Shown piece after piece: positions 6,965-24,947 of a stretch of DNA of 64,000 bases. The notes under the pieces are model-generated. The model was not told where the DNA came from. It saw only the letters and a list, made by a program, of their open reading frames with translations, and did not search any database. The position numbers were made by a program, and so were the translations under genes. The stretch's first letter is position 1, and each line of letters opens with the position of its first letter. Source of the DNA: an uncultured Leptospirales bacterium (GTDB lineage Bacteria > Spirochaetota > UBA4802 > JAFGDQ01); assembly GCA_964626055.1 (NCBI GenBank), contig CAZVDF010000012.1, positions 4,972 to 68,971 on the forward strand. Direction: 5' to 3'.

Positions 6965-7076
6965 AATTTACTCAAGTTGACTGACTTCTTTTATTGATAT
7001 AGTGAACAATAGCGATAAAATGATAAAATTTTATTGCAGATGTTTATACTTTATTTAAAAGAAGTCAGCCAGGTTA
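6965..7076. repeat. Inverted-repeat pair built on the TTACTCAAGTTGACTGAC motif (left arm 6965-6992, right arm ~7058-7076), directly upstream of modB
   Basis: AATTTACTCAAGTTGACTGACTTCTTTT versus AAAAGAAGTCAGCCAGGTT. The same motif forms the outer arms of the 8921-9120 element, and a partial copy lies at 31128-31150 upstream of fliG. It contains a TTGACT -35-like hexamer. Confidence 0.35.
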
Positions 7077-7104
7077 AAAAATAAACTCAGTTTAAATTAA
7101 TTAT

Positions 7105-7791
7105 ATGTTTGAATTTACACAGGCAGACTACTCAGCTATTTTACTTTCTGTTAAGGTAGCGATTACGGCAACCGTTATATCTCTTCCTTTCGGTTTTGCT
7201 GTAGCTTATGTAATGACATATAAACGCTTTCGGGGAATAGTCTTACTGGATGTAATTGTGAATCTCCCGCTTACCCTGCCGCCGGTCGTTATTGGATATA
7301 TTCTGCTTTTGCTTTTAAGCCGGGACGGATTTATAAGCAGAATTCTGCTTCAGCCGCTCGGTATAAGGCTTATCTTTACCTGGAAGGCAGCTGTTATTGC
7401 GACAGCCATTGTTGGTTTCCCCCTCATGGTAAGGTCGATACGTACGGGCATGGAAACTATCGATAAACGGCTTATTCAGGCTTCCCGCACGCTCGGCGCT
7501 GGGAGTATGGACTCGATTATGACGATTATTTTCCCGCTTTCAATTCGCGGAATAATCGCGGGTTCAATTCTTATGTTTGCCCGCGCCCTGGGTGAGTTCG
7601 GGGCCACAATAATCGTCGCAGGCAATATCCCGGGCGTGACCCAGACCATCCCGCTTGCGATTTATGAATATGTAAGCTCCCCAAGAGGAGACCTCATGGC
7701 TATGGCATTATGTACAGTTTCCGTCACAATCTCGGTAATTGTCCTTGTATTTCACGAATGGCTCGGGAGAAAAATGGTAAAGGCCGTCTGA
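7105..7791 (+). CDS. modB: Molybdate ABC transporter permease
   Basis: 228 aa, 5-6 TM helices. Conserved ABC-permease EAA-like loop (…ASRTLGAGSMDSIMTIIFP…). Confidence 0.85.
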   Translation: MFEFTQADYSAILLSVKVAITATVISLPFGFAVAYVMTYKRFRGIVLLDVIVNLPLTLPPVVIGYILLLLLSRDGFISRILLQPLGIRLIFTWKAAVIATAIVGFPLMVRSIRTGMETIDKRLIQASRTLGAGSMDSIMTIIFPLSIRGIIAGSILMFARALGEFGATIIVAGNIPGVTQTIPLAIYEYVSSPRGDLMAMALCTVSVTISVIVLVFHEWLGRKMVKAV

Positions 7792-7792
7792 T

Positions 7793-8845
7793 ATGGAATT
7801 ATCTTTCAACCTTAAAAAGAAATATCATTCATTTTCGCTGGATATCGATTATTCCGCGCATGGCGGCAGAACCGGGGTGTTCGGTCCGTCAGGAAGCGGT
7901 AAATCCACTCTCATGAGCCTGCTCGCCGGGCTTGAGCATCCGGACAGCGGATTTATCAGCCTCGACGGGGAGACGCTTTTCGACAGCGGACATCATGTCA
8001 GCATTCCGCCCGATAAAAGAAGGATAGGCATTGTTTTCCAGCAGCCGCATCTTTTCCCGCATCTTTCGGTTCGGAATAACCTGCTCTACGGATTCAAACG
8101 TTCCGCGCCGGGAGACCGCAAAATAACTCCGAACAGCATTGTAAATGTCCTCCGGATAGAAAATCTTATGCACAGAAATGTGGCCAATCTGTCCGGAGGA
8201 GAAAAACAGCGCGTCGCAATCGGCAGAGCCGTTCTCTCGAATCCCAGGCTTCTTCTAATGGACGAACCTCTGTCGGGCCTTGACGACAAGCTGAAATTCC
8301 AGATCATCCCGTTCATAAAAAAAACATGCGAGACATTCAACATACCGTATATCTTCATATCGCATTCGATACTTGAAATGAGAATAATGACGGACCGCGT
8401 TCTGCCGATCTCCGAAGGCCGCGCCGCGGGAAGCGTCACATCCGATGAACTGGCCCTGGGGCACATGAAGGATTCAGCCGGCTATATCAATCTTTTAAGG
8501 CTTCAAAATCCCAGAAGGATCGACGGCATGTACGCGTACAGATGGGGCGGACAGAACGTTTTAATTTCCGACGGCAGCGATACGGACGAAGCGCTTTTCC
8601 AGATATTATCAACGGATATAATACTTTTTAAACGCCATCCTGAAGCTACCAGCGCGAGAAACCTTCTGAAATGCAGGGTCAAGAATGTTTTTCAAACCGG
8701 ACACAGGCTCGGTGTCGAGCTCGATTGCGGCGGAGAAAAGCTTATCGCTGAAATAGTAAAAGAGTCCGCCGAAGAGCTCGGAGTCCGCGAAGGAGCGGAG
8801 ATATTTGCCGCGATGAAAGCGGTCGCATTCAGGCGGCTGCTGTAG
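7793..8845 (+). CDS. modC: Molybdate ABC transporter ATP-binding protein with C-terminal TOBE (Mop) domain
   Basis: Walker A GPSGSGKST, LSGGEKQR, LLMDEP; C-terminal ~70-aa TOBE-like beta domain; start overlaps the modB stop. Confidence 0.85.
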   Translation: MELSFNLKKKYHSFSLDIDYSAHGGRTGVFGPSGSGKSTLMSLLAGLEHPDSGFISLDGETLFDSGHHVSIPPDKRRIGIVFQQPHLFPHLSVRNNLLYGFKRSAPGDRKITPNSIVNVLRIENLMHRNVANLSGGEKQRVAIGRAVLSNPRLLLMDEPLSGLDDKLKFQIIPFIKKTCETFNIPYIFISHSILEMRIMTDRVLPISEGRAAGSVTSDELALGHMKDSAGYINLLRLQNPRRIDGMYAYRWGGQNVLISDGSDTDEALFQILSTDIILFKRHPEATSARNLLKCRVKNVFQTGHRLGVELDCGGEKLIAEIVKESAEELGVREGAEIFAAMKAVAFRRLL

Positions 8846-9386: not shown

Positions 9387-9812
9387 TTAAGAATATTTAT
9401 ATAGACTTTCGGTAAAATCTTTCCACGCAGACGCAAATATATAAGATATATCGTTCTCGATAAATTTTACAATGTCGCCAAGCCTCTCTTTCGGGAAATA
9501 AGCCAGCGCGCCCGAATCGAAAGCATATCTTAAAATATTCGGATCGGTAGACTCCGTTGAAAGAACTACCGCGTTAAAATTCCTGACAATAGCGGCTTCA
9601 AGAACGTCAAAGCTGCAAACGTCCGCAATATCCACTATTACAAGGTCATAATATCCGGAATTGACTTTGTCGATCGCAACTTCGTATGAGTCCGCTTTAT
9701 CAAAAAAGCAGCTCGGATATGCATATTTAATTTCCTCTTCCATCACGGATAATATATCCCGGTCATTATCAACCGCCAGTATTCTTCTTCCGTTCAATAT
9801 TGAATCTTTCAT
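9387..9812 (-). CDS. Stand-alone CheY-like response-regulator receiver domain protein
   Basis: 141 aa. Acidic pocket (AVDND) and phospho-acceptor Asp in DLVIVD. No output domain. Mod-box immediately upstream. Confidence 0.65.
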   Translation of the reverse strand: MKDSILNGRRILAVDNDRDILSVMEEEIKYAYPSCFFDKADSYEVAIDKVNSGYYDLVIVDIADVCSFDVLEAAIVRNFNAVVLSTESTDPNILRYAFDSGALAYFPKERLGDIVKFIENDISYIFASAWKDFTESLYKYS

Positions 9813-9885
9813 ATATTTTCCTCCGTAATTTTCAAAAGATCAAATTCAAAAATATTTGATAATTCAATTAAATTGCCCTGAACTC

Positions 9886-9935
9886 CATAACGTTATGTTA
9901 ATAAAAACATAACGATTATTGATGTCAATAATAAT
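9886..9935 (+). promoter_or_regulatory. Mod-box module copy 2: CCATAACGTTATGTTAATAAAAACATAACG (three half-sites) then TGTCAATAATAATT, upstream of the receiver gene
   Basis: 24-bp palindrome CGTTATGTTAATAAAAACATAACG at 9891-9914 with perfect GTTATG/CATAAC half-sites. Confidence 0.55.
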
Positions 9936-10211: not shown

Positions 10212-11267
10212 TTATACTGGAGGCAGACACTGCAGTATCCTTTCCGCATCCTTATCCGTTATTTTTTTTCCGTAAATATCGGAATAATATGCTTTCATTT
10301 CTTTTATCATGTCGATGTTTTTAAATAATCCGGGATGGAATATCTTTACCATGTATATCATAAGCAGCACGCCTTCATTGCTTGCGTGATCCCATGCGTA
10401 AACGCCCATAGGCATTCGATACACCCTTTTATTCTTAACAGCCCTGAGATTCGCGAACTCCGGGTTTTTCTTTGCAATATCCGTCGAATCAAAATATCCG
10501 CTGAGGAGAATAATATCCGGGTCCCACGAAAGCACCTGTTGCGCGGATGCCTTTGCATGATTATCATCGATCGCTTCCGGCAGAAAGTTGCCCCCGGAAA
10601 CTTCAACGTTCCAGTGCATTACGCTGCCTTTTCCCTGGCTGCCCATCAGGCTGCCGTGCAGGCCGCCGTAATAAACAGAAGGCCTCTTTTTTCTATCTAT
10701 CTTTGATGTTATCGCAAGGATCTGCTTTACTTTTTTATCGAAATACTTATTGTATTTATCCGCTCTTGCTTTTGCGTCCGACCCCAGAAGGTCGCCGAAC
10801 ATCGTCACCTGTCCCTTAAAGTTTTCGATGTAGTCATTTACATTCATTGGTCTTTTTTCGGCTGAGAAAGCGCATACTGTCTTTAAACCGACAGAGCTGT
10901 ATTGTTCGCCTTTTGTCATGCCGGGCGTATAAAGCACGAAATCGATCTTCTCCTTCAGCAGATCCTCAGGTTTAATGCTTTTATTCGCACAGGCCTTTTT
11001 TATTTCCGGGAACAGCCTGTAAGCCCATGGCGATTGTTTTGCCATATGACTTATCCGGTCTCCTTTGCCCAGCGTCATTATTTTCTCCGGGGAAACACAG
11101 TGCATGCACGCGATCTTTTTCGGATCAGCCGGAATTTCGACCTTGTTTCCACACATGTCAGTTATTATTTTATTTTCTCCGGCATAAAGCGGAGAGCCAG
11201 TCCTGCTCATGCCAAAAGAAATGCCTAAAAGCATTATAATTGAATAAATAAGAATTGTTTTTTTCAT
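10212..11267 (-). CDS. Periplasmic substrate-binding protein of a siderophore/cobalamin-type ABC system (FecB/BtuF, Peripla_BP_2 family)
   Basis: Signal peptide. 351 aa. Family pattern: …DPDIILLSGYF…; C-terminal region similar to the PBP at 17672 and the pseudogene fragment at 21898. Confidence 0.75.
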   Translation of the reverse strand: MKKTILIYSIIMLLGISFGMSRTGSPLYAGENKIITDMCGNKVEIPADPKKIACMHCVSPEKIMTLGKGDRISHMAKQSPWAYRLFPEIKKACANKSIKPEDLLKEKIDFVLYTPGMTKGEQYSSVGLKTVCAFSAEKRPMNVNDYIENFKGQVTMFGDLLGSDAKARADKYNKYFDKKVKQILAITSKIDRKKRPSVYYGGLHGSLMGSQGKGSVMHWNVEVSGGNFLPEAIDDNHAKASAQQVLSWDPDIILLSGYFDSTDIAKKNPEFANLRAVKNKRVYRMPMGVYAWDHASNEGVLLMIYMVKIFHPGLFKNIDMIKEMKAYYSDIYGKKITDKDAERILQCLPPV

Positions 11268-11382: not shown

Positions 11383-13818
11383 TTATAACTCCGCACTTAA
11401 ACCGAAGAAGAACTGCCTTCCGGGGCCCGGGTTGAACGGGTCAATATCATAATCATCTAAAATATTTCTGCAAAGCACGTAAGCCTCATATTTATCTAAT
11501 ACTTTTTGTGAAATTTTTACATTGAACATTATCGGATCATGCAGCTCGACTTTTTTATAATATGCCGTTGAAAAAGAATTAGACGCCGTAGGATTACTTG
11601 CCATTGCATATCTCACAGCTTTAGCCATATATTCTCCGAATATATTCAGAGAAGTTTTCGTAAAGAAATCGAATCTTAAATCCGCAACAAATTGATGCTG
11701 AGGAACGGAAGTCGTACCATTTGTGCTTGTAGGTATATCGCCTTTATTTATTGCCGAATTAGCGCTGTTTTCCAAATTCTTAAGCCTGAGGTATGTGTAA
11801 GTAAGACTGATATTAAGATCCATTACCCTGTCTATTAAGTCTTTAAGTTTTCCGTTTGCGATTAATTCAACACCCTGATGAGTTTCTCCCTTTGTATTTG
11901 TATAAAGCTTGTTCCCGGTTACATTAGGATCATATATTGTAGCCAGCTTATCCTTAAATTTTGTGTAAAAGTAATCGGTGCGTAAGCTAACTGTCCTTTG
12001 CAACAGGAAAAATTCAGGGCCTATATTTGTATTATATGATTTTTCAGGTTTTAAACCGTCGTCCGTAACTTCCGAAGCCACATTGGCATATTGCGACATG
12101 GTCGGAAGCTTGGTCTTCTGTGAGAAGGAACCGCGCAGCAATAGAAAATTCTTAAGAGGTTCATAAGTGACTCCGACTACAGGATTAAATGAATCCCTCG
12201 TCCCCCATATAGCCGAATCCTCTTTGGCGATGTACTGGTCTTCCATATTAGGATAAAAATATGTTACGCGTCCGGCTGTCCTTGTAACATTTCTTTTCTT
12301 ATAATCCATGAATTTTTGGGCGTCGTAAGATATTCCGGCGCTTATGTTAACCGGCAAACTTAAAGCCGGATTGAGATTAATTTCATCCTCCAGTGCGACC
12401 GTGAGCTGTTCCATGGTCATGCGTTTTGTGTCGAAGTAGTCATAACCGGCTAATGCATATGCTGCGTCAGCGCTGCCTAATCCTGTTCCGACAAATCTTT
12501 TATCAGCCTGTTCCCTTTCAACATGTTTATCCCATCGGAAAAGAATAGAATTATTGAGTTTATTCCAGTTTGCAAGCTTATAAGAGGGAAAAATATTAAA
12601 ACCGGCAGATGTATTTTTCCAATTGGAATGATCGCCTCCCCAGCTTGTTACGGGCGTGGTCTCATCGGCGTCTATATAACCATCAAGAACTTCATTATTA
12701 TAAGTATAAAATACATTTCCTTTTAAAGAAAAATCTTCTTTTTCATAATTTAAATAAGGTGCCGCAGTTATTGAATATACGTCCCGCCAGTTAAATGCAG
12801 TTGCGCTCAATTTAAAGGTATTTGAAGAAGCTGAGTTCGACCATGCGCCGTTAGATGTCTCTTCAGTATTAGTCAGTGAATTGCTGTATCTCTTTGATTC
12901 ACTCTGAGTATAATTTGCCGTAATACCTGTTTCAAGGCCTTTAAAAAAAGAATATCCGGTTTTTCCTGAAATATTATATTTAAACATTTCCTGATGAGGC
13001 CATTCGCCGGTATCATTTAAATATTTATCGAGCGCGTACTGGGAGGCTGCAGAAGAATCCATTGTGTATCCCAGGGATGGATATAACTTATTGAACCATT
13101 TTAAACGTTCCGATTTATCCAGCTTTTTGGAGACTTCAAAAGAAGCTTCTTTTGAGACATTGGCTGTCAGCCAATAATAGAAATCATTTAAAGCCATTCC
13201 CTGGGCTGCATTAATAGTATAATCCCCATTAATACCATACTCGATACCTCCTTTTGCGTATAAATCCGTAGGCCTCTTTGAAATTATATTTATTGATCCG
13301 ACCGTCCCCAGACTTCCATATAGGGCGGAAGAGGTACCGCGATTAATAATGATTTCCGAAGCATCCATTACAGGGATTTTTGAAATATCGACATTTGCCT
13401 CATAAACATCGGCTATCGGAATACCGTCGACCAGCAGGGCGACATAAGGCATTTCAAATCCTCTCAGGTAAAAACGTTTATGACCTTTTCCATGTTGAAA
13501 TGTAATAAAACCCGGAACTAATTTCAGTGAATCGCTAAGATCTCTGTCACCATGCGCTTTAATATCCTCCGCTGTCAATATTGAAGTAGTGGTCGCGTTT
13601 TCGATATTTGCGATCCTTTTCTGTTTTACCACGATCTCGCCAATGGTAAACGGCTCGGTTTTTTGTTTTTCGGCTTTCGTCGAATCTGTTTTTTTCTCTT
13701 CTGTCTGTATTTGCGCAGGCTGATCCTGTACTGCCTGTGCATCCAGATTCATTACTGAAATTGACAGAAGAAATAAAGAACTCAATAAAAATGCTGAAAA
13801 TCTCTTCATAATCAACAA
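11383..13818 (-). CDS. TonB-dependent outer-membrane receptor (TBDR1)
   Basis: 811 aa. Signal peptide. TonB-box-like EPFTIGEIVV near the N-terminus. Plug then a long beta-barrel with amphipathic strands. Mod-box directly upstream. Confidence 0.8.
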   Translation of the reverse strand: MLIMKRFSAFLLSSLFLLSISVMNLDAQAVQDQPAQIQTEEKKTDSTKAEKQKTEPFTIGEIVVKQKRIANIENATTTSILTAEDIKAHGDRDLSDSLKLVPGFITFQHGKGHKRFYLRGFEMPYVALLVDGIPIADVYEANVDISKIPVMDASEIIINRGTSSALYGSLGTVGSINIISKRPTDLYAKGGIEYGINGDYTINAAQGMALNDFYYWLTANVSKEASFEVSKKLDKSERLKWFNKLYPSLGYTMDSSAASQYALDKYLNDTGEWPHQEMFKYNISGKTGYSFFKGLETGITANYTQSESKRYSNSLTNTEETSNGAWSNSASSNTFKLSATAFNWRDVYSITAAPYLNYEKEDFSLKGNVFYTYNNEVLDGYIDADETTPVTSWGGDHSNWKNTSAGFNIFPSYKLANWNKLNNSILFRWDKHVEREQADKRFVGTGLGSADAAYALAGYDYFDTKRMTMEQLTVALEDEINLNPALSLPVNISAGISYDAQKFMDYKKRNVTRTAGRVTYFYPNMEDQYIAKEDSAIWGTRDSFNPVVGVTYEPLKNFLLLRGSFSQKTKLPTMSQYANVASEVTDDGLKPEKSYNTNIGPEFFLLQRTVSLRTDYFYTKFKDKLATIYDPNVTGNKLYTNTKGETHQGVELIANGKLKDLIDRVMDLNISLTYTYLRLKNLENSANSAINKGDIPTSTNGTTSVPQHQFVADLRFDFFTKTSLNIFGEYMAKAVRYAMASNPTASNSFSTAYYKKVELHDPIMFNVKISQKVLDKYEAYVLCRNILDDYDIDPFNPGPGRQFFFGLSAEL

Positions 13819-13843
13819 ACCTCCCTAAATGTTAGTAATCATT

Positions 13844-13890
13844 CGATATGTCCAAAAAAACATAGCGTTTATATATGTCAATATATATTT
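13844..13890 (+). promoter_or_regulatory. Mod-box module copy 3: CGATATGTCCAAAAAAACATAGCG then TGTCAATATATATTTT, 26 bp upstream of the TBDR1 start
   Basis: Matches the module consensus (2 mismatches in half-sites). Confidence 0.55.
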
Positions 13891-13984
13891 TGTTATTTTT
13901 GACATTTTTAGTAATTTTGCAGATCTGAAGGCGCAAAAAAATAGCAGGGAGTGGAATTCATCTGTCCGGAAATAGTCAAAAAGG

Positions 13985-14025
13985 GACCTCCCAGGCCGGG
14001 GGATGTCCCTTTTAAAAAGAGATAA
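13985..14025. terminator. GC-rich hairpin GGGACCTCCCAGGCCGGGGGATGTCCC flanked by T/A runs on both strands, between tonB (end) and the TBDR1 promoter region; possible bidirectional terminator
   Basis: Stem GGGAC/GTCCC plus an inner CCC/GGG pairing, followed by TTTTAAAAAG on the plus strand and TTTTGAC on the minus strand. Confidence 0.35.
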
Positions 14026-14254
14026 CAAAATGAGATTCATTTATCATTATGTAAAATTTAACATATCGCGAATTCCTGTCGACAAATTTTTTAAAAAATA
14101 TATTTAAAACTTATGTTCTGTACGCGATGTATTGTAAAAACGGAATTGGGCGATCAGGCTTTTCTGGTAATCGCTTTCCTCAGCATGGGCGGAAGCGTCC
14201 GGAAATAAAAGCAGCAGGCAGAATATCTGTTTCATCGGTATGTTCTCCTTTATT

Positions 14255-14914
14255 TCAGTCCTGCAGCGTGAACACTATAGGAAGGCGCACCACCATCTTT
14301 ACGGGTTTACCGCTTTTTTTACCGGGCCGAAAGCGCATTCTCGCGAGCACTTTCATCGCGGCGTCGTCGAATCCGTATCCGGCGTTCGCGGACAGGACTT
14401 TTGACTTGTTGATCGCTCCGTTGTCGTTGACCTGGACTTCCACAATAACCGTGCTCCGCGTAATGTTCGCCGATCTGGCCGCTTTCGGGAAATATTCGTC
14501 GGGATTGAAATCAATGATAGGCACAGGCGGACGCTCCGCCAGGTCCGCGAACATGTATCCGTCCTGGTCTGTGCCTGTACCCGAAAGCTTGTTTATGTTC
14601 ACATCGACATTCTCCGCGTCAGCCTTGCCTTCGCCCGTGCCCTCGACCCATTCTTCCTTCTGTACCGGCGCCGGGTTAGTGTCGCCGCCAAGGATTATCG
14701 ATTCCGGAATATCGATAAAATCGACTTCTACATTTTTATTCGCGAGTTCGCTTCCGTCGAAAACCATTTCTTTATTGGACGCGAAAGCGACAATTGCAGG
14801 AAAATAATATATAATAATAATTATAACATGAAGCGCGAACGAGCCGGTAAAGCACCGTTTAAAAAGATCCATTTTTTTGAACCGCCGAATTATTTTTCCG
14901 ATCTTATTATTCAT
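14255..14914 (-). CDS. tonB: TonB energy-transducer protein
   Basis: N-terminal TM anchor, Pro/Glu-rich spacer, C-terminal TonB_C-like domain (…AMKVLARMRFRPGKKSGKPV…). 219 aa. Follows exbB/exbD. Confidence 0.7.
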   Translation of the reverse strand: MNNKIGKIIRRFKKMDLFKRCFTGSFALHVIIIIIYYFPAIVAFASNKEMVFDGSELANKNVEVDFIDIPESIILGGDTNPAPVQKEEWVEGTGEGKADAENVDVNINKLSGTGTDQDGYMFADLAERPPVPIIDFNPDEYFPKAARSANITRSTVIVEVQVNDNGAINKSKVLSANAGYGFDDAAMKVLARMRFRPGKKSGKPVKMVVRLPIVFTLQD

Positions 14915-14930
14915 AATTCAACCCCCGGAA

Positions 14931-15332
14931 TTAACGTTTTACGGACAGGGCTATCCTCGTAACGCCCGCCTGGCGGATCAATCCCATCGCGTACGCTATT
15001 TTGCCGTATGAAAGCCTTTCGTCCGCGGAAAGCGTCACCCTCATGTTGGGCCTGTATTTCGCTTCCTGAGTAAGCTTAACAAGCATTCTGTCTTCCGTGA
15101 TCTCGCTATCTTCCATCAGCAGTTTGCCGTTTACCGTCAGGGCGATCTGCACCGACTTCTGAATGTTCGGATCGGCCGCGTTGGCCTTTGGAAGATTGAT
15201 GTTTACGGATTCCATTTTCAGGAAGTTGGCCGTTACCATGAATATTACGAGAAGCACGAGAAGAACATCTACCATAGGAGTAATATTGATATAACCGATC
15301 TCGTCGCTCTCGGAGTTTGAATACATTGCCAT
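14931..15332 (-). CDS. exbD: ExbD/TolR biopolymer transport protein
   Basis: 133 aa, single TM (…PMVDVLLVLLVIFMV…), ExbD periplasmic domain. Confidence 0.8.
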   Translation of the reverse strand: MAMYSNSESDEIGYINITPMVDVLLVLLVIFMVTANFLKMESVNINLPKANAADPNIQKSVQIALTVNGKLLMEDSEITEDRMLVKLTQEAKYRPNMRVTLSADERLSYGKIAYAMGLIRQAGVTRIALSVKR

Positions 15333-15394
15333 AATTTATTACCTCCTTATTAAAATAATAGCTTATCCGATATATTTTTATATAATGGATAAAC

Positions 15395-15522
15395 ATTAAT
15401 GATAGAATGATCAGATTTAATTAATTTTAAGGCAACATGGATGTTGCCGACCGCCGAAGAGTCCATGGATGGGATATTTGAGGCGGAAAATTGATTAGAT
15501 CTGATCATTCTATCAACAGTGT
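15395..15522. repeat. MITE-like palindromic element, family 1, copy B, inserted between exbB and exbD (TIRs CATTAATGATAGAATGATCAGAT / ATCTGATCATTCTATCAACAGTG; core hairpin GGCAACATGGATGTTGCC)
   Basis: The core is the reverse complement of the core at 8985-9052. Confidence 0.6.
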
Positions 15523-15552
15523 TAAAAAATTAATGTAATAAAAGTTAGTATA

Positions 15553-16185
15553 TCAGTTTATTTTCTTCCCCTTCGCACTGAGATTGGCGCTGATCTCTTT
15601 TGAAAATATCTCAAGGTGCTGGATAATGACCTTTACTTTTTTCGAAAAATAGTTGTTTGCCATGACGACCGGTATGGCTATAAAAAGCCCGAACGCTGTC
15701 GCGTACAGCGCCTTGGAAATGCTCCGCATCACCACTTCCGCGCCCGTGCTCCCCAGAGTTCCCAGCCCGTAGAACGCCTTGATGACTCCAAGCACCGTGC
15801 CCAGAAGACCTATGAACGGGGCGTTATTCCCCAGCGTGTTCAGGATCGTCAGCCTCTTTTCCATAAATATCTTCTCTTCAATAATTTTTCCGGACATGAG
15901 CTCCGGTAGGCTGCCCTCGTCATTTTTAGCATGATCTATTGAAAATTGCGCGAACCTGGTATACGCGTTATCGCCTGCCGCTTTTATCAGATCGGCTGAT
16001 GTTTTAAGATCGCGCTTTCTGAAAAGAGCTATCAATTCCTCCGCGAATGCGGTAATCTTTTTATTGGAATTCTTATTGAATACCATTGCTCTTTCAATTC
16101 CGACGGCAAGCGCAACTATGCTCGCGAGAATGAGCATTGAGAAAACAATTATTTCGCCGTAATCCACTAATATCAATTCGTACAT
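15553..16185 (-). CDS. exbB: ExbB/TolQ/MotA-family proton-channel protein
   Basis: 210 aa, three TM helices, conserved MotA_ExbB region (…LGTVLGVIKAF…). Confidence 0.8.
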   Translation of the reverse strand: MYELILVDYGEIIVFSMLILASIVALAVGIERAMVFNKNSNKKITAFAEELIALFRKRDLKTSADLIKAAGDNAYTRFAQFSIDHAKNDEGSLPELMSGKIIEEKIFMEKRLTILNTLGNNAPFIGLLGTVLGVIKAFYGLGTLGSTGAEVVMRSISKALYATAFGLFIAIPVVMANNYFSKKVKVIIQHLEIFSKEISANLSAKGKKIN

Positions 16186-16233
16186 GTCGTTCTTCCTTAA
16201 ATTTGACTTATATAGTTTTATATTGCCATCTCA

Positions 16234-17568
16234 TTAAATAATGGGGTGCTCCTGCCGCCAATCCAGAGGCAGAACTTTTATTGTATCCCCGGCTTTTACC
16301 GCGGAACCTGCCGGAATGATAGCGAGCGAGTTTGCGGCCGCCATTGAAGCTATCATGCCCAGTCTGTCGCCAAGTCCAAGTATTACCCGGTATTCGCCCT
16401 TAACTTTTTCCAGGCGTGAATACTTTACAAATGCCATGCCCATTCTTTGAGGCGTCGAATCCATGGCCGTTGCGTCCACCGCAGGATGTCCTGTTTCCGC
16501 GATACCTCTCATTTTAAGAAGAGCGGGCCTTACAAGAGTCTCGAAATTGATTATACAGCCCGCAGGCGGGCCTGCAAGGGAAAAGACCGGGATTGCTTTT
16601 TTCCCGCCATCCCGGGAAAAATTACTGATTACGCCGAACGCTACCGCCGCTCCGGGGCCCATTTTAATTTTGGAAAAAATTACTTTACCAAGTTTCCCAA
16701 CTACAAGCCTTACCAGGTCGTAATCGCCCTTGGACACTCCGCCGCTTGTGATCACGACATCCGCCGTTACCCCGGTCGGGATTTTCGATAAAATAGCGTC
16801 TTCTTTATCCCGTGCGATACCCAGTATCCTTGGTATGCCTCCGTAGTGCGAGACAAGAGAAGAGATCGTAGCGGTATTGGAATTATAAGTTTTACCGCGT
16901 GACAACGGCCTGCCGGGTTTGATAAGTTCGTCCCCCGTGGCTATTATGGCAACAACCGGACGACGCACTACTTTAATCCAGGCCTTTCCGATGGACGCAA
17001 GCGCGGAGATCTGTGTCGGGCCGATAACCGTTCCTTTCTGCACAATAAGGGCGCCTTTTTTTACATTGCTTCCTGCAGGACGAATGCTGTCCCCGGGATT
17101 CGCTTTCACATAAATCTTTACGTATGAGGGCTTATTTCTGTTGGGCCCGTTTTTATTACCGGGCTCGTCGGTATCCTCAAAACGCACCACGCAATCCGCT
17201 CCTTCCGGGACTACCGAACCGGTCATGATACGAATGGCCGTCCCGGGAGTGACTTCAGTCCGGATGAGGCGCCCTGCCCGCGCCGTAGCCGCTATTCTCA
17301 ATACTGCTGGATTCTGCGCGGAGGCATCTCCGATATCTTCCGACCTCACCGCATAGCCGTCCGGGCCGGAAATGGAAGCCTGGGGCAGATCGAAATTGGA
17401 ATAAATATTTTCCGCGAGCACCTGGCCTGCGGATTTGACAATCGGCCTCTCCTCTTCTCCTATGACGAATGTATTCTTTAAAACAATTTCCAGCGCGTCT
17501 TCATAATTTATGGCGGTCTTTTCTTTACCCTTCCGAATTGTTTTAACGACATCCCGTGATTTTGTCAT
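16234..17568 (-). CDS. moeA: Molybdopterin molybdotransferase MoeA (Moco biosynthesis, Mo/W insertion)
   Basis: 444 aa. MoeA N/linker domains, MoCF_biosynth domain with GGVSKGDYD, MoeA C-terminal domain. RBS GGAGG. Confidence 0.85.
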   Translation of the reverse strand: MTKSRDVVKTIRKGKEKTAINYEDALEIVLKNTFVIGEEERPIVKSAGQVLAENIYSNFDLPQASISGPDGYAVRSEDIGDASAQNPAVLRIAATARAGRLIRTEVTPGTAIRIMTGSVVPEGADCVVRFEDTDEPGNKNGPNRNKPSYVKIYVKANPGDSIRPAGSNVKKGALIVQKGTVIGPTQISALASIGKAWIKVVRRPVVAIIATGDELIKPGRPLSRGKTYNSNTATISSLVSHYGGIPRILGIARDKEDAILSKIPTGVTADVVITSGGVSKGDYDLVRLVVGKLGKVIFSKIKMGPGAAVAFGVISNFSRDGGKKAIPVFSLAGPPAGCIINFETLVRPALLKMRGIAETGHPAVDATAMDSTPQRMGMAFVKYSRLEKVKGEYRVILGLGDRLGMIASMAAANSLAIIPAGSAVKAGDTIKVLPLDWRQEHPII

Positions 17569-17590
17569 GCTGCCTCCATTATAATATATA

Positions 17591-17638
17591 CGTTATGTCA
17601 AAAAAAACATAACCTGGATGCTTGTCAAGGTATTTTTA
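17591..17638 (+). promoter_or_regulatory. Mod-box module copy 4 (best consensus): CGTTATGTCAAAAAAAACATAAC then CTTGTCAAGGTATTTTTAAA, 23 bp upstream of the moeA start
   Basis: Perfect inverted half-sites GTTATG/CATAAC. Resembles the E. coli ModE operator architecture (from memory: CGTTATATT…TACATAACG). Confidence 0.6.
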
Positions 17639-17671: not shown

Positions 17672-18724
17672 TTATTCTATTCCGCCCGCAAGAATAGTCT
17701 TAATATCGCTATCGGAAAGTTTATAGTCAAAAAAACGCCGGTAAAAAGACCGTACCTCATCTTCAATGCTGATATGTCTGAATCTATCCGGATAAAACAT
17801 CTTTGCTGCCCATAAAACGGTTAATGCCTGTTCGACTGTTCTCTGCCCCCATGAATGAGCCCCCATCGGAATAGAATATACCTTCTTATTTATTACTGCA
17901 TGCGTTCCTGAAAGCCTTTTATCTTTATATATTTTTGATATCTCCGACGGTGAAGCGACTATCATAATATCCGGATTCCAGATTAGCACTTGCTCATGTG
18001 AAAAAGACACTTTCCCTGTTCTTTTAATTCCAGCAGTCACACTTATTCCTCCCGCTTCCTTGATCCACCAGTCAGCGATGAGTAGCGGCGTTGTTAAAGT
18101 ATCCGGGCTAAAATACAGCACCACGGGCATCTCATTTTTCGAAATTCCGCTTAAACGATTCCTGATATTTTTCATCGATACTTCAAAATATAATAAATAC
18201 TCTTTCGTCCTTATCATACGATCCAGCAGGTTTCCCAAAATTTTCATATTCGATAAAATTTCCGAAGAGTCTCTCCATTCTATAAAAACAACCGGCATCC
18301 TGTAACGTTCCAGCATATTAACCATAAACATGTCCATGGTAATAACCACATCCGGATTCAACTTAAACAAAACTTCCATATTGAGATCGCGACTCTGCCC
18401 CTGGATCATCGGCTGTTTTGCCAGATGAGGCGCAATAGCAGTCTGCATATTGTATCTATTCGATTTTGCAAATAATGGGAGACCGTTAACAATTTTTTTT
18501 CCTTCACCGAGCGCAAATAGATAGCTATTAATTACAGGGACTGAACCTACGGTTGCGATCCGGGAGATTTTATACGGTACAATGACTTTTCGTCCCGCCA
18601 TATCTATGATGGATTTACTGTGCGGGATTTCTTCCGTAATCAATTCATTTGCCGATAATCCATTGTGCCACAGGCTGCATATGCATGTAAGCGTAAACAG
18701 CAATTTTAAAAAAACAGCTTTCAT
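17672..18724 (-). CDS. Periplasmic substrate-binding protein, FecB/BtuF (Peripla_BP_2) family, second copy
   Basis: Start refined to MKAVFLKLLFTLTCICSLW (signal peptide). C-terminal …IPMGAHSWGQRTVEQALTVLWAAKMFYPDRF…; the ORF-track N-terminal extension to 18820 is unlikely. Confidence 0.75.
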   Translation of the reverse strand: MKAVFLKLLFTLTCICSLWHNGLSANELITEEIPHSKSIIDMAGRKVIVPYKISRIATVGSVPVINSYLFALGEGKKIVNGLPLFAKSNRYNMQTAIAPHLAKQPMIQGQSRDLNMEVLFKLNPDVVITMDMFMVNMLERYRMPVVFIEWRDSSEILSNMKILGNLLDRMIRTKEYLLYFEVSMKNIRNRLSGISKNEMPVVLYFSPDTLTTPLLIADWWIKEAGGISVTAGIKRTGKVSFSHEQVLIWNPDIMIVASPSEISKIYKDKRLSGTHAVINKKVYSIPMGAHSWGQRTVEQALTVLWAAKMFYPDRFRHISIEDEVRSFYRRFFDYKLSDSDIKTILAGGIE

Positions 18725-18950
18725 GTATTTATCCCATATACTCTTTATAATGCATGGCAGAGACGGGTTTATTATGAAATAAAACCATCGCTTTTGGCTG
18801 TGGTCCACCGGTCTTTTCAACGGTGGAAATACGGGTTATGCCCGTATTCTTTTCATAACAAACGACCAAAATTGTCATCTTGAAAGAAATGTATTTTAAT
18901 AATGCTTTTAATAGGGGCTGTCTTAAAACAAAGCCTGTTTAATATGTAAT

Positions 18951-19198: not shown

Positions 19199-21544
19199 TT
19201 AAACTTTTCCTGAAACAGTGAATATAACGGTTAATGGAGCAGCTGGAGCGTATGTGCCGCTGCCGTCGTATTGATATTCAGTCCAGTTGATAGTTCCTAC
19301 ATATTTTCTGTTGAAAAGATTCGTAACAGATATGCCTGCCGTAAAATCCTTGATCCCGAACAAAGAATCTTTTTTATACGCAATATTCAGATCCGCAGTA
19401 ATATAGCTTGGAACCCATTGATTATTTTCCATATTGCCATATCTGAGATCAACGTATCTCGCTATCGGCGATACTGATATATCCCATATCTTGTATTCAA
19501 GCCCCGCTGTTGCTGACCATTTCGGGCAGTCCGGCACCTGGTTGCCTTTTGCGTGTACAACATTGCTGGATGATGTTTTTACGTCATCTGAAAAGGTATA
19601 GTTGTCATACGCGCCTGAAGAAAAGATTGTGAAGTTTTTAGCCGGTGATACACCTGCCGTGAGTTCTGCGCCGTAAGATCGCGCTTTTGCGGAGCTCTCA
19701 AAATAATAGACGCCGGTACCGATGGTCGGGTCATAGATTTTAACTTGTTTATGACGATACATGGCATAAAAAACGGAAGGCTCGACATACCAACTTTCTT
19801 TGTTATATCTCATGCCTAAATCGAAGTTGTCTACGATTTCAAGTCTCAGCTTTCTCCATAGATCCTGGAAAGTAATACCGGCAGCATTAAATTGGCTCTC
19901 AAATGCGTAGTATGTTGCCGGAACAGATCCCCAGTTCTGACGGCCGTATCCGCGCGCGTAATTTGCGCGTACGACTGCGTCGCTGCCGAAGGAGTAGCTG
20001 ACACCCGCGTTCGGGAGCCATTCACGGAATGTCTTCCCGTCGCATATCATACCTCCTCTAATTGATGGATTCTGATCCCATACGTCGTCGCCGTTCGCAT
20101 CTGCCAGATCGCGGCCATCGTAATATTTGTAAGAAGGTTCACGATAGATAAGATAACGTACTCCGCCGGTTAGCATTAAATTACCGATATTGCTTTCGAG
20201 ATTCACAAAAGGGCTGTTGCTTTTATGATCTGTAAATTTAGCGAGGTTATTCCAGCCTGCGAATGTCAGTGATCCGTTGTTTTGAATTCTATAAGCTTTT
20301 TGATTGCTTGGGGGGGGCGGCGGCTGCATTGATTGATACCAGTGTCCAAGGCTGACGCTATGGCCTTTAAAAGTATGATCATAGCTCAATACTCCCCCGT
20401 ATGTATCATGTTTTTGATACCAATAGGTTACTCCGGGTCGATTAAGATCTGCAGCTCTTACGTTGGATAGCTTGCTGGTCCCGGATATTGATAAACCGTC
20501 TTCCCGTATGTAATAAGGTTTCAAAAACAGTTTACCGTTATCAAAAACAGATAATACGGCTTTTCCGAAAACAGCCTGTTCCGTATATCTCTGCTTATTG
20601 TAATCTTTATAAGCCCAATCCTGTGCCGAGTAAGTCTTTTTATCATTATAGCTATATTTGTAGTTGTCGGAATCTGAAATATTTTTTGCTTGTTCATATG
20701 TTAGATTTCTGTAGTTATGCCCATTGTCCCTGCTCCATATTCCATATGCTTCGATATAGAGCCTGCTTAATATAGTCTGTGTTAAGCCTATTTCTGCGTT
20801 CTGACGCTGCTGAAAACCATCGCCGCGCCATTGATTCGCGTAAGTATAAGAACCGGAAGCGAAAATGCTGGTACCCCACGGCATTTTACCGGAATCAACC
20901 CTAGCATAAGTTTTGGTGAAATCGTAAGTGCCGACGGATTGTTTTACCTGTGTGGAGAATGTGTCGGACGGCTTCAGCATAATCATGTTTATAACTCCTC
21001 CGGCATTTGAAAATCCGAATCCTTTGTTTGCCGGCACAGCTCCGCTGTAAAGCGTAGTGCTTTCTATGTTTTCCAGATCGATAATATCGCCCTGTGCTCC
21101 GAAATAATGACCTCCCTGAATCGGTACGCTGTCAACGTTTCGGCATAGATGATAGGAATTTTTCCCTCTGATATTGACAGCCTGGCCTTTATCCAAACCA
21201 TATGCATCCGGGCTTTGTATATTGACTGATGGCAGAGTTTGTAGCGGCATTAACGAATTTGTCTGACTTGCCCCGCCAAGTCGTTCGATGCCTTTTTTAT
21301 TCACTGTTCTTTCCTGATATGGCTCCTTTCCTTTTCTTTCGAAAAAATTTTCGCGTTTCCCTTTTACGACGATCTCGGCTGAAAGGGGCACTTCGTTTCC
21401 GCTTTTCTCTTTTTCAACATCCGCTTCTTTTTTATCGACGTCTTTAGATGAATCCAGGGCATTGACGTCATTAAAGGCTATAAAGCAGAATAGCAACGAT
21501 AAAAAAAGTATTGTTTTACTTAATGGATATTGCTTGCATTTCAT
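19199..21544 (-). CDS. TonB-dependent outer-membrane receptor (TBDR2), paralogue of TBDR1
   Basis: 781 aa. Signal peptide. TonB-box-like AEIVVKGKR. Plug plus barrel architecture. Mod-box upstream. Confidence 0.7.
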   Translation of the reverse strand: MKCKQYPLSKTILFLSLLFCFIAFNDVNALDSSKDVDKKEADVEKEKSGNEVPLSAEIVVKGKRENFFERKGKEPYQERTVNKKGIERLGGASQTNSLMPLQTLPSVNIQSPDAYGLDKGQAVNIRGKNSYHLCRNVDSVPIQGGHYFGAQGDIIDLENIESTTLYSGAVPANKGFGFSNAGGVINMIMLKPSDTFSTQVKQSVGTYDFTKTYARVDSGKMPWGTSIFASGSYTYANQWRGDGFQQRQNAEIGLTQTILSRLYIEAYGIWSRDNGHNYRNLTYEQAKNISDSDNYKYSYNDKKTYSAQDWAYKDYNKQRYTEQAVFGKAVLSVFDNGKLFLKPYYIREDGLSISGTSKLSNVRAADLNRPGVTYWYQKHDTYGGVLSYDHTFKGHSVSLGHWYQSMQPPPPPSNQKAYRIQNNGSLTFAGWNNLAKFTDHKSNSPFVNLESNIGNLMLTGGVRYLIYREPSYKYYDGRDLADANGDDVWDQNPSIRGGMICDGKTFREWLPNAGVSYSFGSDAVVRANYARGYGRQNWGSVPATYYAFESQFNAAGITFQDLWRKLRLEIVDNFDLGMRYNKESWYVEPSVFYAMYRHKQVKIYDPTIGTGVYYFESSAKARSYGAELTAGVSPAKNFTIFSSGAYDNYTFSDDVKTSSSNVVHAKGNQVPDCPKWSATAGLEYKIWDISVSPIARYVDLRYGNMENNQWVPSYITADLNIAYKKDSLFGIKDFTAGISVTNLFNRKYVGTINWTEYQYDGSGTYAPAAPLTVIFTVSGKV

Positions 21545-21744
21545 TGTAAAAACCTCCTGAAAAATTAAATGATGTATTTATTTAATTATTTTTTTGTGAT
21601 ATCCGGACGAGTAATGGCATCCGGAATATTTTTTTGGGGGGAATTGATTAGGATGTTATCTGTTTCCCTTACTCAATACTTTATACTTATCCTTTCATTA
21701 TCAATAAGCAGCCTCCTTTTTGTACATGTTATCCAAAAAATATT

Positions 21745-21790
21745 CGCTATGTCTAAAAAAACATAACGTATATTCGTGTCAATAATTATT
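21745..21790 (+). promoter_or_regulatory. Mod-box module copy 5: CGCTATGTCTAAAAAAACATAACG then TGTCAATAATTATTTATAT, upstream of TBDR2
   Basis: Matches the module consensus. Confidence 0.55.
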
Positions 21791-22128: not shown

Positions 22129-23091
22129 CTATTTCGCGTTCCTGAAAATATCCGCAAGGTTTTTCTTTAACCGGTGAATGTCGTTATTCCTTATGAAATC
22201 CCATCCGACCCATTTAAACCCGGCTCCTTCAGGCAACCTGTTGTCGACATCTATGTGCTGGCTTGGGAATCCCATTCCCGCAGCCAGTTCCCCGAAATCT
22301 TTTCCGGTTATATATAAAGCTAAAACCTCCGCCCTTTTGAGCCCGATTTTTTTAACAAGCATGTATACCGGTTCAAGTATGGCGCCGTCTTCAGGCCAGA
22401 TAAGCTCCATCCCGTCATTCGTTGAGTCTTTCAATGCAAAATGATAGGGTATTGCATACACGGCCGGTTTGTCTTTTTTGCCTGCCATGTCGTTCACAAT
22501 TTTCGAATACCCTTCCACTGCTATAACATTACGGGCCAGCTTTTTTATTCCGTCTTCTCCGAAATATTTGAATATTGTAAATAACACTGCGTCATTCGCG
22601 ATGCCGTCTTTCCCGCTGACTGCGATCTTTTTTGTGTATTTATCATCAAGGATATCCGTCCATCCGGCAGGCGCAGGCAGCTTCCCCAATTCTCTCCTGT
22701 CCGCCAGGAATACATAAGGGAAGGAAGAAACAAGCCTGTAACACCCTATTTTATCGATATATCCGTCATTTTGAAAATTTTCATTCATCCGCTCATCGGC
22801 GAATCCCGCGAAATTCTCCGTATTTGCGAATTTTTTTATGAATTCGGATTTCATAAAATCTCCGAATCCCATTGAAATGATTACATCAGGCAGCATTTCC
22901 ATGCTTTTAATGTCAGTAAAATTATCGTATTTCGCTCTGTCCTCTGAAAAAGAAGGCAAGACAACCACTAGCTCCTCTCCCGTCTTCAATTTATGCTCTT
23001 CCAGCAAAATGTTCAGTCGTGCCAGCAGCGGTCTTTCCATGGGGCACGGAGCAAATGCAATCATATTTATTTCCCTGTTATCAACGATCAT
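22129..23091 (-). CDS. Substrate-binding-protein-like (type-2 PBP fold?) protein lacking a signal peptide; function unknown
   Basis: 320 aa. No hydrophobic N-terminus. 12-nt gap after the ATPase gene, so no room for a leader. Weak resemblance to Fe3+/thiamine-type solute-binding proteins. Low certainty. Confidence 0.35.
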   Translation of the reverse strand: MIVDNREINMIAFAPCPMERPLLARLNILLEEHKLKTGEELVVVLPSFSEDRAKYDNFTDIKSMEMLPDVIISMGFGDFMKSEFIKKFANTENFAGFADERMNENFQNDGYIDKIGCYRLVSSFPYVFLADRRELGKLPAPAGWTDILDDKYTKKIAVSGKDGIANDAVLFTIFKYFGEDGIKKLARNVIAVEGYSKIVNDMAGKKDKPAVYAIPYHFALKDSTNDGMELIWPEDGAILEPVYMLVKKIGLKRAEVLALYITGKDFGELAAGMGFPSQHIDVDNRLPEGAGFKWVGWDFIRNNDIHRLKKNLADIFRNAK

Positions 23092-23103
23092 GATGTTATC
23101 CTC

Positions 23104-23937
23104 CTAAATATCATTCTCCTTAAAATTTTTCTTATTATTTTTTCCTGAAATCCCGCATACGGACTTAGGTATGCATACCCTCAGAGAATCGTTCAACTTC
23201 AATACATTCACGCTTGCGTTATAAAGGTCGGATAGGCTCTCACTGTTAATCACGTCGTCGCTTTTGCCGTCGGCCGCTATGACGCCGTTTTTAATCATGA
23301 TCGCGCGATCGGCTATCCAGAGCGCATGCTCCGGGGAATGCGTCGATTTAATGAATGTATAGCCTTCCTTCGACAGCTTGACTATTTCTTCGAGCAGCTT
23401 TAGCTGATTCCCATAATCGAGTCCGCTTGCGGGTTCGTCCATAATGACTGTTTTTGCTCCCTGTGCGAGTGCCCTTGCGATTATTGTAAGCTGTCTTTCA
23501 CCGCCGCTGATTTCAGTGTATGGCCTTTCCGCAAGATGCAATATTGACAGCCTTTTCATGGCTTCATGCGCGATTCGCACATCGTCTTTAGTGTATTTAT
23601 AAAAAAAATTTTTATGCGGGATCCTGCCCATAAGAACGACATCAATAACACTGTAAGGGAAAACCGTTTTATGAATCTGCGGGACATAAGCGATTTTTCG
23701 CGCAAGCTCTTTGATGCCGATGTCGCTGATATTTTTTCCGTTAACATATATGTTGCCTCTGGCCGGGTTAAGGAATCTAAGCATAATCCTGATCAGCGTT
23801 GTTTTGCCGCTGCCATTCGGGCCGAGAATAGTTACGATTTCTCCCTCAGTAACATTAAAATTAATTTGCTCGAGAATAATTCTATTTGTGTATCCGAATG
23901 AAATATCGCTTACACTGATATGCCGCTTTAGCTCCAT
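23104..23937 (-). CDS. ABC transporter ATP-binding protein, FepC/FecE type
   Basis: GPNGSGKTT, SGGERQ, IMDEP motifs; 277 aa; overlaps the permease gene. Confidence 0.85.
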   Translation of the reverse strand: MELKRHISVSDISFGYTNRIILEQINFNVTEGEIVTILGPNGSGKTTLIRIMLRFLNPARGNIYVNGKNISDIGIKELARKIAYVPQIHKTVFPYSVIDVVLMGRIPHKNFFYKYTKDDVRIAHEAMKRLSILHLAERPYTEISGGERQLTIIARALAQGAKTVIMDEPASGLDYGNQLKLLEEIVKLSKEGYTFIKSTHSPEHALWIADRAIMIKNGVIAADGKSDDVINSESLSDLYNASVNVLKLNDSLRVCIPKSVCGISGKNNKKNFKENDI

Positions 23938-24947
23938 CCCTTCCTCGCCTTTCTTAATATAAGCACAAAGAACGGTATGCCTATAATAGATGTGATTATT
24001 CCGATTGGTATCTCGACATCAAAAAGAAGCCGTGAAAAATTGTCGACTATGATAAGATAGGAAGCCCCGATAAGAGCGCTTGCGGGGATTAATACTTTGT
24101 TGTCCGGTCCTATTAACATCCTGGCGATATGCGGAATGATAAGCCCTACCCAGCCTATCATTCCAGCCATAACAACCGTCATTGCGCTTATTACTGTCGA
24201 GATCAAAATAAGCAGCATTCGAATTTTGCCGACAGGAACTCCGAGAGCCTGCGCTTCATCATCTCCAAGGCTCAATGCGTTTATGTAACCGGAAAGAAGG
24301 ATGATAATGATTATCCCGGTAGTTTGAGTTACAGCAGAAAAAAAAGCCGTATGTTTGTCGCAAAATGATAGACTCCCCATGAGCCACTGGGTTATGGCCG
24401 GGAGCTGGTTATATGGATCTGCGACATATTTCATGATCGAAAGCATCGCTGTAAAAAATGCGCCGCTTATTACGCCTCCAAGTATTAAAAGAAGAACAGA
24501 ATTTCCCCTGTACATCTTTGCGATCCCGACTGAGATCATGACTGCCGCGAAACCGAAACTGAATGTAAGCACCTGCACCGTAAACCAGCTTTTTGCAGTA
24601 ATCATTCCCAGAGCGGCGCCAAAGGAAGCACCTGCGAGAACACCCAGAATGGACGGGGAGACAAGCGGATTAACGAATATAGCCTGGTACGTTGCCCCTG
24701 AAACAGCCAGAGAGGCTCCTATTACAAGACCCGCCACAATCCGAGGCATCCTTATTTCAATTAAAATATTATTCAGAAGCTGAAGCCTGCCGGCATCCAT
24801 ATCGCATACGTTAAACAGTTTGTTTAAAAAAAAACAGACTGTGTCTCTGACAGGGACCGGGTACTTTCCCATTGTAAGTGAAACAACCACTGTACAGACC
24901 AGTATTAAACCAAGCAGGATGAATAATTTTTTCTTGTGAAATATCAT
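23928..24947 (-). CDS. FecCD/BtuC-family ABC permease
   Basis: 339 aa, ~9-10 TM helices, conserved FecCD core (…RIVAGLVIGASLAVSGATYQAIFVNPLVSPSILGV…). Confidence 0.85.
   Translation of the reverse strand: MIFHKKKLFILLGLILVCTVVVSLTMGKYPVPVRDTVCFFLNKLFNVCDMDAGRLQLLNNILIEIRMPRIVAGLVIGASLAVSGATYQAIFVNPLVSPSILGVLAGASFGAALGMITAKSWFTVQVLTFSFGFAAVMISVGIAKMYRGNSVLLLILGGVISGAFFTAMLSIMKYVADPYNQLPAITQWLMGSLSFCDKHTAFFSAVTQTTGIIIIILLSGYINALSLGDDEAQALGVPVGKIRMLLILISTVISAMTVVMAGMIGWVGLIIPHIARMLIGPDNKVLIPASALIGASYLIIVDNFSRLLFDVEIPIGIITSIIGIPFFVLILRKARKGWS

Follow-up and report, generated by a model that had tools for sequence, protein, structure and literature searches.

The genes moeA, exbB, exbD, and tonB on the minus strand of a 64-kb stretch of DNA from an uncultured Leptospirales bacterium (contig CAZVDF010000012.1; hereafter the window, that is, the whole stretch analyzed) probably form the central transcription unit of an ~24-kb island for the acquisition of molybdenum and tungsten (Mo/W). 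The island extends from ~2.7 to 27.5 kb and appears to be a ModE-type regulon that is induced when Mo/W is scarce. In the mechanism proposed here, a small ModE-type repressor (27116-27466) would bind a repeated palindrome, CGtTATGT-N8-ACATAaCG, at the -10 position behind a TTGACA hexamer and, under Mo/W sufficiency, would shut at least five promoters. Metal scarcity would lead to expression of two TonB-dependent receptors together with the ExbB-ExbD-TonB motor that energizes them, two MolA-like binding proteins, and a MolBC-like type II importer accompanied by a DUF364 enzyme. A divergent MoeA would place the imported metal onto molybdopterin, and a porin and the ModABC oxyanion route would operate in parallel. 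Mo/W, either as the oxyanion or as a chelate, is the presumed cargo of the receptors.

The four genes are arranged head to tail in the order moeA (16234..17568), exbB (15553..16185), exbD (14931..15332), and tonB (14255..14914), with gaps of 48, 220, and 16 nt. The first encodes a divergent MoeA-family protein with MoeA_N, MoCF_biosynth, and MoeA_C domains. The other three products match MotA_ExbB (PF01618, 104.7 bits), ExbD (PF02472, 91.6 bits), and TonB_C (PF03544, 48.2 bits), each above the cut-off, and the predicted TonB protein also has an N-terminal anchor with an SFALH motif. These matches and spacings bear out the gene identities and the closely spaced, single-strand arrangement given in an earlier note on this DNA, made from the sequence alone. 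The 48-nt gap between moeA and exbB contains no terminator-like and no promoter-like match, which suggests co-transcription of all four genes.

The regulatory sequence upstream of moeA (17590..17627, minus strand; 34.6 bits against a position weight matrix) consists of TTGACA (17622-17627), 8 nt, and a palindrome (17590-17615). It reads TTGACA-agcatcca-GGtTATGT-tttttttg-ACATAaCG; a GGAGG ribosome-binding site and then the ATG come next. A Mod-box had previously been placed at 17591-17638, and this interval holds the perfect palindrome TATGT-N8-ACATA with CG flanks. The earlier note described a single box in front of moeA; this is correct for moeA itself, but the island contains seven strong boxes, of which this is one. 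The 18-mer TATGTTTTTTTKGACATA occurs eight times in the window with ≤3 mismatches, against 0.35 expected, and the exact palindrome occurs seven times. Alignment of six sites yields a fixed composite of TTGACA, 8 nt, and CGtTATGT-N8-ACATAaCG. The weight matrix was built from 11 sites, seven in the window and four in L001, a related locus from a Spirochaetota metagenome-assembled genome. With it, the seven window boxes score 24-37 bits (best of 20 shuffles, 18.6 bits), and all of them fall at 9.9-26.5 kb, inside the island. Strong boxes (≥24 bits) stand 20-200 nt 5' of minus-strand genes, at a constant distance from TTGACA.

Four other boxes precede identifiable genes, all on the minus strand: a receiver-domain-like gene (box 9890-9915), TonB-dependent receptor 1 (13843-13868), TonB-dependent receptor 2 (21744-21769), and the DUF364/importer operon (26173-26198). 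The spacer of the box falls at the -10 position, 16-17 nt after TTGACA, so that a dimer bound there would be expected to block RNA polymerase. The remaining two boxes, again on the minus strand, are distal. One, at 14044-14069 with a TCGACA -35-like hexamer (whole element, 14044..14082), lies between tonB and receptor 1, and the other (26464..26489) is upstream of the DUF364 box by ~290 nt. Each has its own -35-like hexamer and stands 200-290 nt upstream of the respective proximal box. The first is followed after ~50 nt by a terminator-like hairpin (13974-14013), leaving an apparently short transcribed stretch. The two distal boxes could drive short Mod-regulated transcripts or act as looping operators.

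On both flanks of the four-gene unit stand a receptor gene and then a Peripla_BP_2 gene, all on the minus strand. One pair consists of receptor 1 (11383..13868) and a MolA-like binding protein (10212..11267). The other consists of receptor 2 (19199..21769), which has an ~200-nt leader, and a second MolA-like binding protein (17672..18820) directly upstream of the moeA promoter. Both receptors contain a Plug domain, and their N-terminal motifs, GEIVVKQKR and AEIVVKGKR, resemble TonB boxes (EIVV in receptor 1). The boxed importer operon (22129..26198, minus strand) begins with DUF364 (25268-26137) and continues with a FecCD permease (23928-24947), an ATPase (23104-23937), and an SBP_bac_6 protein (22129-23091; domain match). 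The best solved relative of the permease is MolB (HI1471, 2nq2_A; E 1e-63, 218.8 bits), followed by FhuB (167), HmuU (147), and BtuC (125). The top solved match of the ATPase is MolC (2nq2_C; E 8e-42). The binding proteins match MolA (HI_1472, 3psa) with E values of 1e-18 and 5e-11, chiefly over the C-terminal lobe, and the uncharacterized structures 4ovk and 4pag score higher. From these permease, ATPase, and binding-protein matches, the island's inner-membrane step is MolBC-like. A 48-aa open reading frame (ORF) at 21898-22044 (minus strand), between the SBP_bac_6 gene and receptor 2, resembles a Peripla_BP_2 C terminus (...IKEMQYFYKHFF...) and is probably a decayed binding-protein gene.

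The arrangement is partly kept in L001, the locus with the closest MoeA for which context could be retrieved. Its proteins are 68% (MoeA), 81% (ExbB), 85% (ExbD), and 71% (TonB) identical to those of the window. The order in L001 is a receptor, a binding protein, FecCD, ATPase, nifH, two nifD/nifK-like genes, box, and moeA; it continues with EamA, a methyltransferase, exbB, exbD, tonB, box, a surface-protein-like gene, a receptor, box, a porin-like gene, and modC. The receptors that flank the moeA-to-tonB stretch there are boxed, as in the window. The nifH gene scores above its curated cut-off and the divergent nifD/nifK-like genes score below theirs; the three occupy 6106-9846 of L001, with the MolBC-like importer on one side and the boxed moeA on the other.

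Beyond this relative, a scan of one genome per species recovered 19 loci with MoeA orthologues at 42-65% identity (52-65% without the outlier L020), from Syntrophorhabdus, Geobacteraceae, Smithella, Desulfobacterales, and Dehalococcoidia. Neighborhoods were surveyed by tblastn in the window, L001, L002, and these 19 loci. A Peripla_BP_2 gene accompanies moeA in most of them, and FecCD/ATPase genes and DUF364 each do so in about half. TonB-dependent receptors are found near moeA in most diderm lineages, and genes for a TonB system, with two unrelated types of ExbBD, are found in eight or nine loci. The Geobacteraceae locus L006 is one example. It begins with FecCD, ATPase, FmdE, ExbB, ExbD, TonB, a molybdenum cofactor (Moco) riboswitch, DUF364, receptor, binding protein, radical SAM (S-adenosylmethionine) enzyme, and MoeA. 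After another riboswitch come a methyltransferase, a binding protein, a second methyltransferase, an unassigned ORF, DUF364, and a receptor, and a third riboswitch precedes XdhC, ModC, and ModA. In both L005 and L006, Moco riboswitches stand directly 5' of a DUF364-receptor-binding protein-radical SAM-moeA series, and in Smithella (L011) a receptor gene is preceded by a Mod box of the Escherichia coli type. The boxes and Moco riboswitches are therefore two independent Mo/W-sensing devices placed over homologous receptor-containing operons in different phyla. The proposal in the earlier note that TonB-dependent outer-membrane uptake is part of the Mo/W response here is thus supported by context: the boxed receptors and importer, the mod genes, L001, and the riboswitch-bearing Geobacteraceae loci.

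Extended to these lineages, the observations invite a broader proposal, which we hold tentatively and with the balance tipping slightly against it: that anaerobic diderms (Spirochaetota, Syntrophorhabdia, Geobacteraceae, and Smithella) share an unrecognized, conserved TonB-dependent Mo/W pathway. It would comprise receptors with ExbBD-TonB, MolA- and MolBC-like steps, DUF364, and a MoeA with an altered pocket, under ModE boxes or Moco riboswitches according to lineage, and its cargo may be a SAM-derived Mo/W metallophore. What such receptors carry bears on an alternative in which the route is real but transports a Mo/W chelate, possibly a SAM-derived metallophore that DUF364, methyltransferase, and radical SAM enzymes would make and that EamA would export in the relatives, or else a pterin- or Moco-like salvage compound. 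Chelates are the usual cargo of type II importers and TonB-dependent receptors. Control by a Moco riboswitch also parallels the B12 riboswitch over btuB.

Genomic context has long linked the DUF364 family to the transport of Mo, W, and V (PMC2954201; a Methanococcus fitness study), and the sole enzyme of the family characterized to date cyclizes methylated SAM to azetidine carboxylate (PMC12930334), which fits a chelate cargo. Other lineages (L006, L011, L012, L014, L016-L018; L004, L018; L005, L009, L010, L013) repeatedly carry, in their moeA/DUF364/MolBC-like clusters, FmdE-like proteins, SAM methyltransferases, a radical SAM enzyme with a BATS domain, and an EamA exporter, a recurrence that hints at small-molecule biosynthesis and export there. 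Against a chelate, MolA binds molybdate and tungstate specifically (PMC4031551), and DUF364 also occurs in archaeal modABC operons that have no receptors (Methanococcus fitness study). The window, moreover, contains no EamA, methyltransferase, radical SAM, or FmdE gene, and metallophore biosynthesis is purely putative. A chelate or salvage cargo is accordingly a real possibility, if a somewhat doubtful one.

The points that weigh against the island-wide reading touch both its regulation and the TonB genes themselves. The 116-aa candidate regulator (27116..27466, plus strand) matches the ModE repressor N-terminal domain (TIGR00637; E 7.6e-18) with 64.4 bits, below the cut-off of 98.5, and it has no molybdate-binding Mop domain. 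Within the boxes, a T-run occupies the -10 position and makes a poor -10 element. The canonical mod operon (porin, modD, modA, modA, modB, modC; 2755..8845, plus strand), in which modD, both modA copies, and modC exceed their NCBIfam cut-offs, is preceded by only a weak E. coli-like box variant behind TTGACA (2769-2794); its 18.3 bits lie within the range of shuffled sequence. The absence of a Mop domain, the sub-threshold ModE match, and the weak mod operon box would suit a box that answers to another regulator and another signal, such as iron, sulfide, or redox state, with iron chelates, haem, or corrinoids as the cargo, and the binding-protein, receptor, and permease families are indeed best known for iron, haem, and B12. 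This alternative is nevertheless very unlikely. The architecture of the box equals the ModE consensus, moeA is itself boxed, and modD, modA, modB, and modC lie in the island. An independent Mo/W signal, the Moco riboswitch, stands over the homologous Geobacteraceae operons. A cobalamin, haem, or iron assignment of the receptor and importer set was also considered directly and rejected, both because MolB and MolC are clearly the best structural relatives, far ahead of FhuB, HmuU, and BtuC, and because Rfam scans of the window and of 14 genome loci turned up no cobalamin riboswitch.

As to the TonB genes, the window ExbB and ExbD score highest in NCBIfam against tolQ (108.7 bits against a cut-off of 221) and tolR (97.7 bits against 127), and none of the curated NCBIfam ExbB, ExbD, TonB, TolQ, or TolR models matches the trio above its cut-off. 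A Tol-Pal identity was discarded: the product of the third gene has a TonB_C domain, and neither tolB nor pal follows nearby. The large hairpin between exbB and exbD, described below, might attenuate downstream expression. A search anchored on ExbB retrieved 26 metagenomic loci (ExbB 58-79% identical), all with exbB-exbD and with tonB wherever the contig reaches; no moeA, receptor, binding protein, DUF364, or box was found within their flanks, so the motor is ordinarily stand-alone. The trio follows glnN (type III glutamine synthetase), a housekeeping setting, in three of three loci examined (L024, L034, and L044), and in 11 of the 26 a promoter-like motif of its own (AAAAAGTATTGC...) stands upstream of exbB. 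Even in L001, exbB lies two genes away from moeA and has its own structured leader. Only the window and L001 hold the trio inside a Mo/W island, and the direct moeA-exbB fusion is therefore unique to the window genome.

These findings are what would be expected if a general TonB trio had by coincidence been rearranged beside moeA and were expressed mainly from other promoters, its position then being uninformative about Mo/W. Base composition can be read in the same direction: the GC content of the moeA-exbBD-tonB stretch is 0.45-0.47, compared with 0.39-0.41 in the flanking receptor and binding-protein genes. The transporter genes of the window are in turn 53-71% identical to Syntrophorhabdus and Desulfobacterales homologues, versus 25-42% to L001, and together the two contrasts suggest a mosaic origin of the island. 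Coincidence is nonetheless an unlikely explanation, given the Mod box followed by a 48-nt gap with no promoter-like match and the retention of the linkage in L001 at ~70-85% protein identity. In addition, this moeA module has independently acquired unrelated exbBD-tonB sets in other lineages, including Geobacteraceae, Smithella, and Syntrophorhabdus. The two receptors next to the window unit carry boxes, so even a general TonB system would serve Mo/W-regulated receptors. Within the proposed regulon, the 26 loci without Mo genes make the window motor probably the general TonB system of the lineage, recruited to the regulon, rather than a dedicated paralogue. The stand-alone promoter-like motif, AAAAA(A/T)GTATTGC, is present in L023, L024, L027, L028, L030, L031, L034, L037, L039, L041, and L044 and absent from the window and L001; in several stand-alone loci the spacer also holds the palindrome TTAACC-N4-GGTTAA, which may be an operator.

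The first gene of the unit departs from canonical MoeA in its predicted active site. The window protein and its orthologues retain E. coli D59, T100, E188, D228, and D259 as invariant alignment columns. Both lysines of the IKPGKP motif (E. coli K275 and K279) are gone, the motif reading KMGPGA, and PGNPVS is replaced by GPPxGC with an invariant Cys; both replacements are found, with small variations, in the window MoeA and the aligned orthologues (among proteins P0002-P0109). The window protein and orthologues also share a conserved insertion, RFEDTDEPGDKNGPN. Curated MoeA/Glp models give 288, 288, and 268 bits to the window protein, against cut-offs of 534, 475, and 440. Judged from its sequence, the protein is a MoeA-family member of a distinct subfamily, and KMGPGA, GPPxGC, and the insertion suggest an altered oxyanion or substrate pocket.

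The 220-nt spacer between exbB and exbD is ~130-200 nt longer than the 22-88-nt gaps of most relatives; only the short contigs L043 and L046 come near it, with gaps of ~200 and ~170 nt that contain no TwoAYGGAY match. The earlier note had assigned the extra sequence to a miniature inverted-repeat transposable element (MITE). An insert with inverted arms is indeed present (46 nt, 80% complementary), but the MITE label is unproven because its terminal inverted repeat has no second copy in the 64-kb window, and the sequence instead scores as a TwoAYGGAY RNA motif (RF01731) on the plus strand, antisense to the operon (15383..15532; 51.3 bits, gathering score 43). The match covers the full-length model, includes two ATGGAT loops, and is the sole gathering-level Rfam match in the window; it is absent from 16 other exbB-exbD loci scanned. 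Double ATGGAT-loop sequences like that of the insert occur in a few viral contigs, with two per contig in three of these. The insert folds strongly on both strands (z -8.1 and -10.7). It has no U-tract after it on the mRNA strand and thus does not qualify as a canonical terminator, but effects on mRNA processing or on the stoichiometry of ExbB to ExbD/TonB are conceivable.

A second structured element, an ~80-nt four-way-junction motif (26872..26957, plus strand) with no Rfam match (E ≤ 1), sits upstream of the ModE-N regulator gene. Its other copy (L001 13274-13360, plus strand) is the exbB leader, in the gap between the methyltransferase gene and exbB. The two copies differ almost solely in loops or in compensatory pairs, 3 of the 27 pairs being changed on both sides, and a covariance-model search with the motif returned only the two founding copies in the 650 kb searched. 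The element may be a new cis-regulatory RNA of the Mo/W island. Because the L001 exbB leader recurs in the window upstream of the regulator gene, exbBD-tonB may ancestrally have had its own regulated leader, in which case the window arrangement would be derived and represent a tighter coupling. Nearby, at 26560-26790 (plus strand), a long inverted repeat (GATAAAGCGGGATACATTACAAAATTTT ... AAAATTTTGTAATGTATCCCGCTTTATC) surrounds ~150 nt of GC-rich sequence and has no Rfam match.

The earlier note placed a putative terminator after tonB. A terminator-like hairpin with a T-run exists (AAAAGGGAC...GUCCCUUUUU; ~13974..14013, minus strand), but it lies ~240 nt past the tonB stop, beyond both a 43-aa ORF and the distal Mod box at 14044-14069. 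The ORF (14105..14235, minus strand) has a ribosome-binding site; it is left out of the system because it has no counterpart in L001 and no Pfam match. The boxed receiver-domain-like gene spans 9387..9915 (minus strand; 141 aa). The remaining genes of the window (flagellar, Rnf/Nqr-type, and others) are unrelated to the Mo/W island.

If the proposed regulon is correct, Mo and W would join the scarce nutrients that are imported actively, which would explain how strict anaerobes supply their Mo/W enzymes in sulfidic, Mo/W-poor habitats. It would also provide a physiological context for the low-affinity MolBC-A importer, for DUF364, and for the divergent MoeA subfamily, and cultivable Geobacter relatives would become a place to probe the route. 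Passage of molybdate and tungstate across the outer membrane is generally assumed to be passive. In Azotobacter vinelandii, Mo and V are carried by catecholate siderophores. The earlier note knew of no TonB-dependent molybdate or tungstate route, and the literature searched agrees, yielding no established example and a single annotation-level hint. A 2024 review of the substrates of TonB-dependent transporters contains no occurrence of molybd- or tungst-, the accessible part of a 2024 review on metal homeostasis in bacteria describes ModE and ModABC only, and no paper in the literature searched brings together the Moco riboswitch and TonB. The hint comes from an Azotobacter chroococcum cluster annotated as containing a TonB receptor with molybdate as its potential substrate beside modE, modG, and modABC (PMC4465626). 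As in the window, a TonB-dependent receptor adjoins mod genes and is read as a possible Mo route; the remark is an annotation, however, without coupling to moeA or exbBD-tonB, and concerns an aerobic organism of another phylum.

Comparison with characterized systems shows which parts of the island are familiar. The window box shares its architecture with the ModE consensus of E. coli, which PMC545781 quotes as ATCGNTATATA-N6-TATATANCGAT: CGtTATGTt-N6-gACATAaCG in the window and CGnTATATA-N6-TATATAnCG in E. coli. Both stand over promoters of Mo uptake genes. The half-sites differ, TATAT in E. coli and TATGT in the window. The window regulator, like E. coli ModE, carries the ModE N-terminal domain, but it lacks the two molybdate-sensing Mop domains, and the window regulon takes in TonB-dependent receptors, exbBD-tonB, DUF364, and the MolBC-like importer. 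The importer itself has its counterpart in MolBC-A of Haemophilus influenzae (HI1470-HI1472), a type II importer of molybdate and tungstate (PMC4031551, PMC4245157), whose MolB and MolC are the best solved relatives of the window permease and ATPase and whose MolA is matched by the binding proteins. In both organisms the genes lie near modD and modA. PMC3928620 gives the H. influenzae cluster as modA-molCBA-modD and lists in it no TonB-dependent receptor, TonB system, DUF364, or moeA, whereas the window importer set stands among boxed receptors and a TonB motor.

The linkage of a specialized MoeA paralogue to a Mo/W transporter, which makes uptake and cofactor assembly one unit, is likewise known from Methylorubrum extorquens, where a tungsten-specific MoeA1 is encoded with tupBCA in a moeA1-mobB-tupBCA cluster (PMC13197769). 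The transporter there is a type I importer, TupABC, TonB is not mentioned in that paper, and the pocket substitutions of the window MoeA are different ones. In its tiers, the overall design of the island matches that of B12 uptake, in which the BtuB receptor, the TonB-ExbBD motor, and BtuFCD operate under cobalamin riboswitch control. The window island contains the same three tiers, a receptor, a TonB motor, and a Peripla_BP_2 protein with a type II importer, and in its Geobacteraceae homologues the level of the finished cofactor likewise controls expression, through the Moco riboswitch. The two systems differ in the molecule sensed and in the cargo; the window has no cobalamin riboswitch, and its operon includes the metal insertase MoeA.

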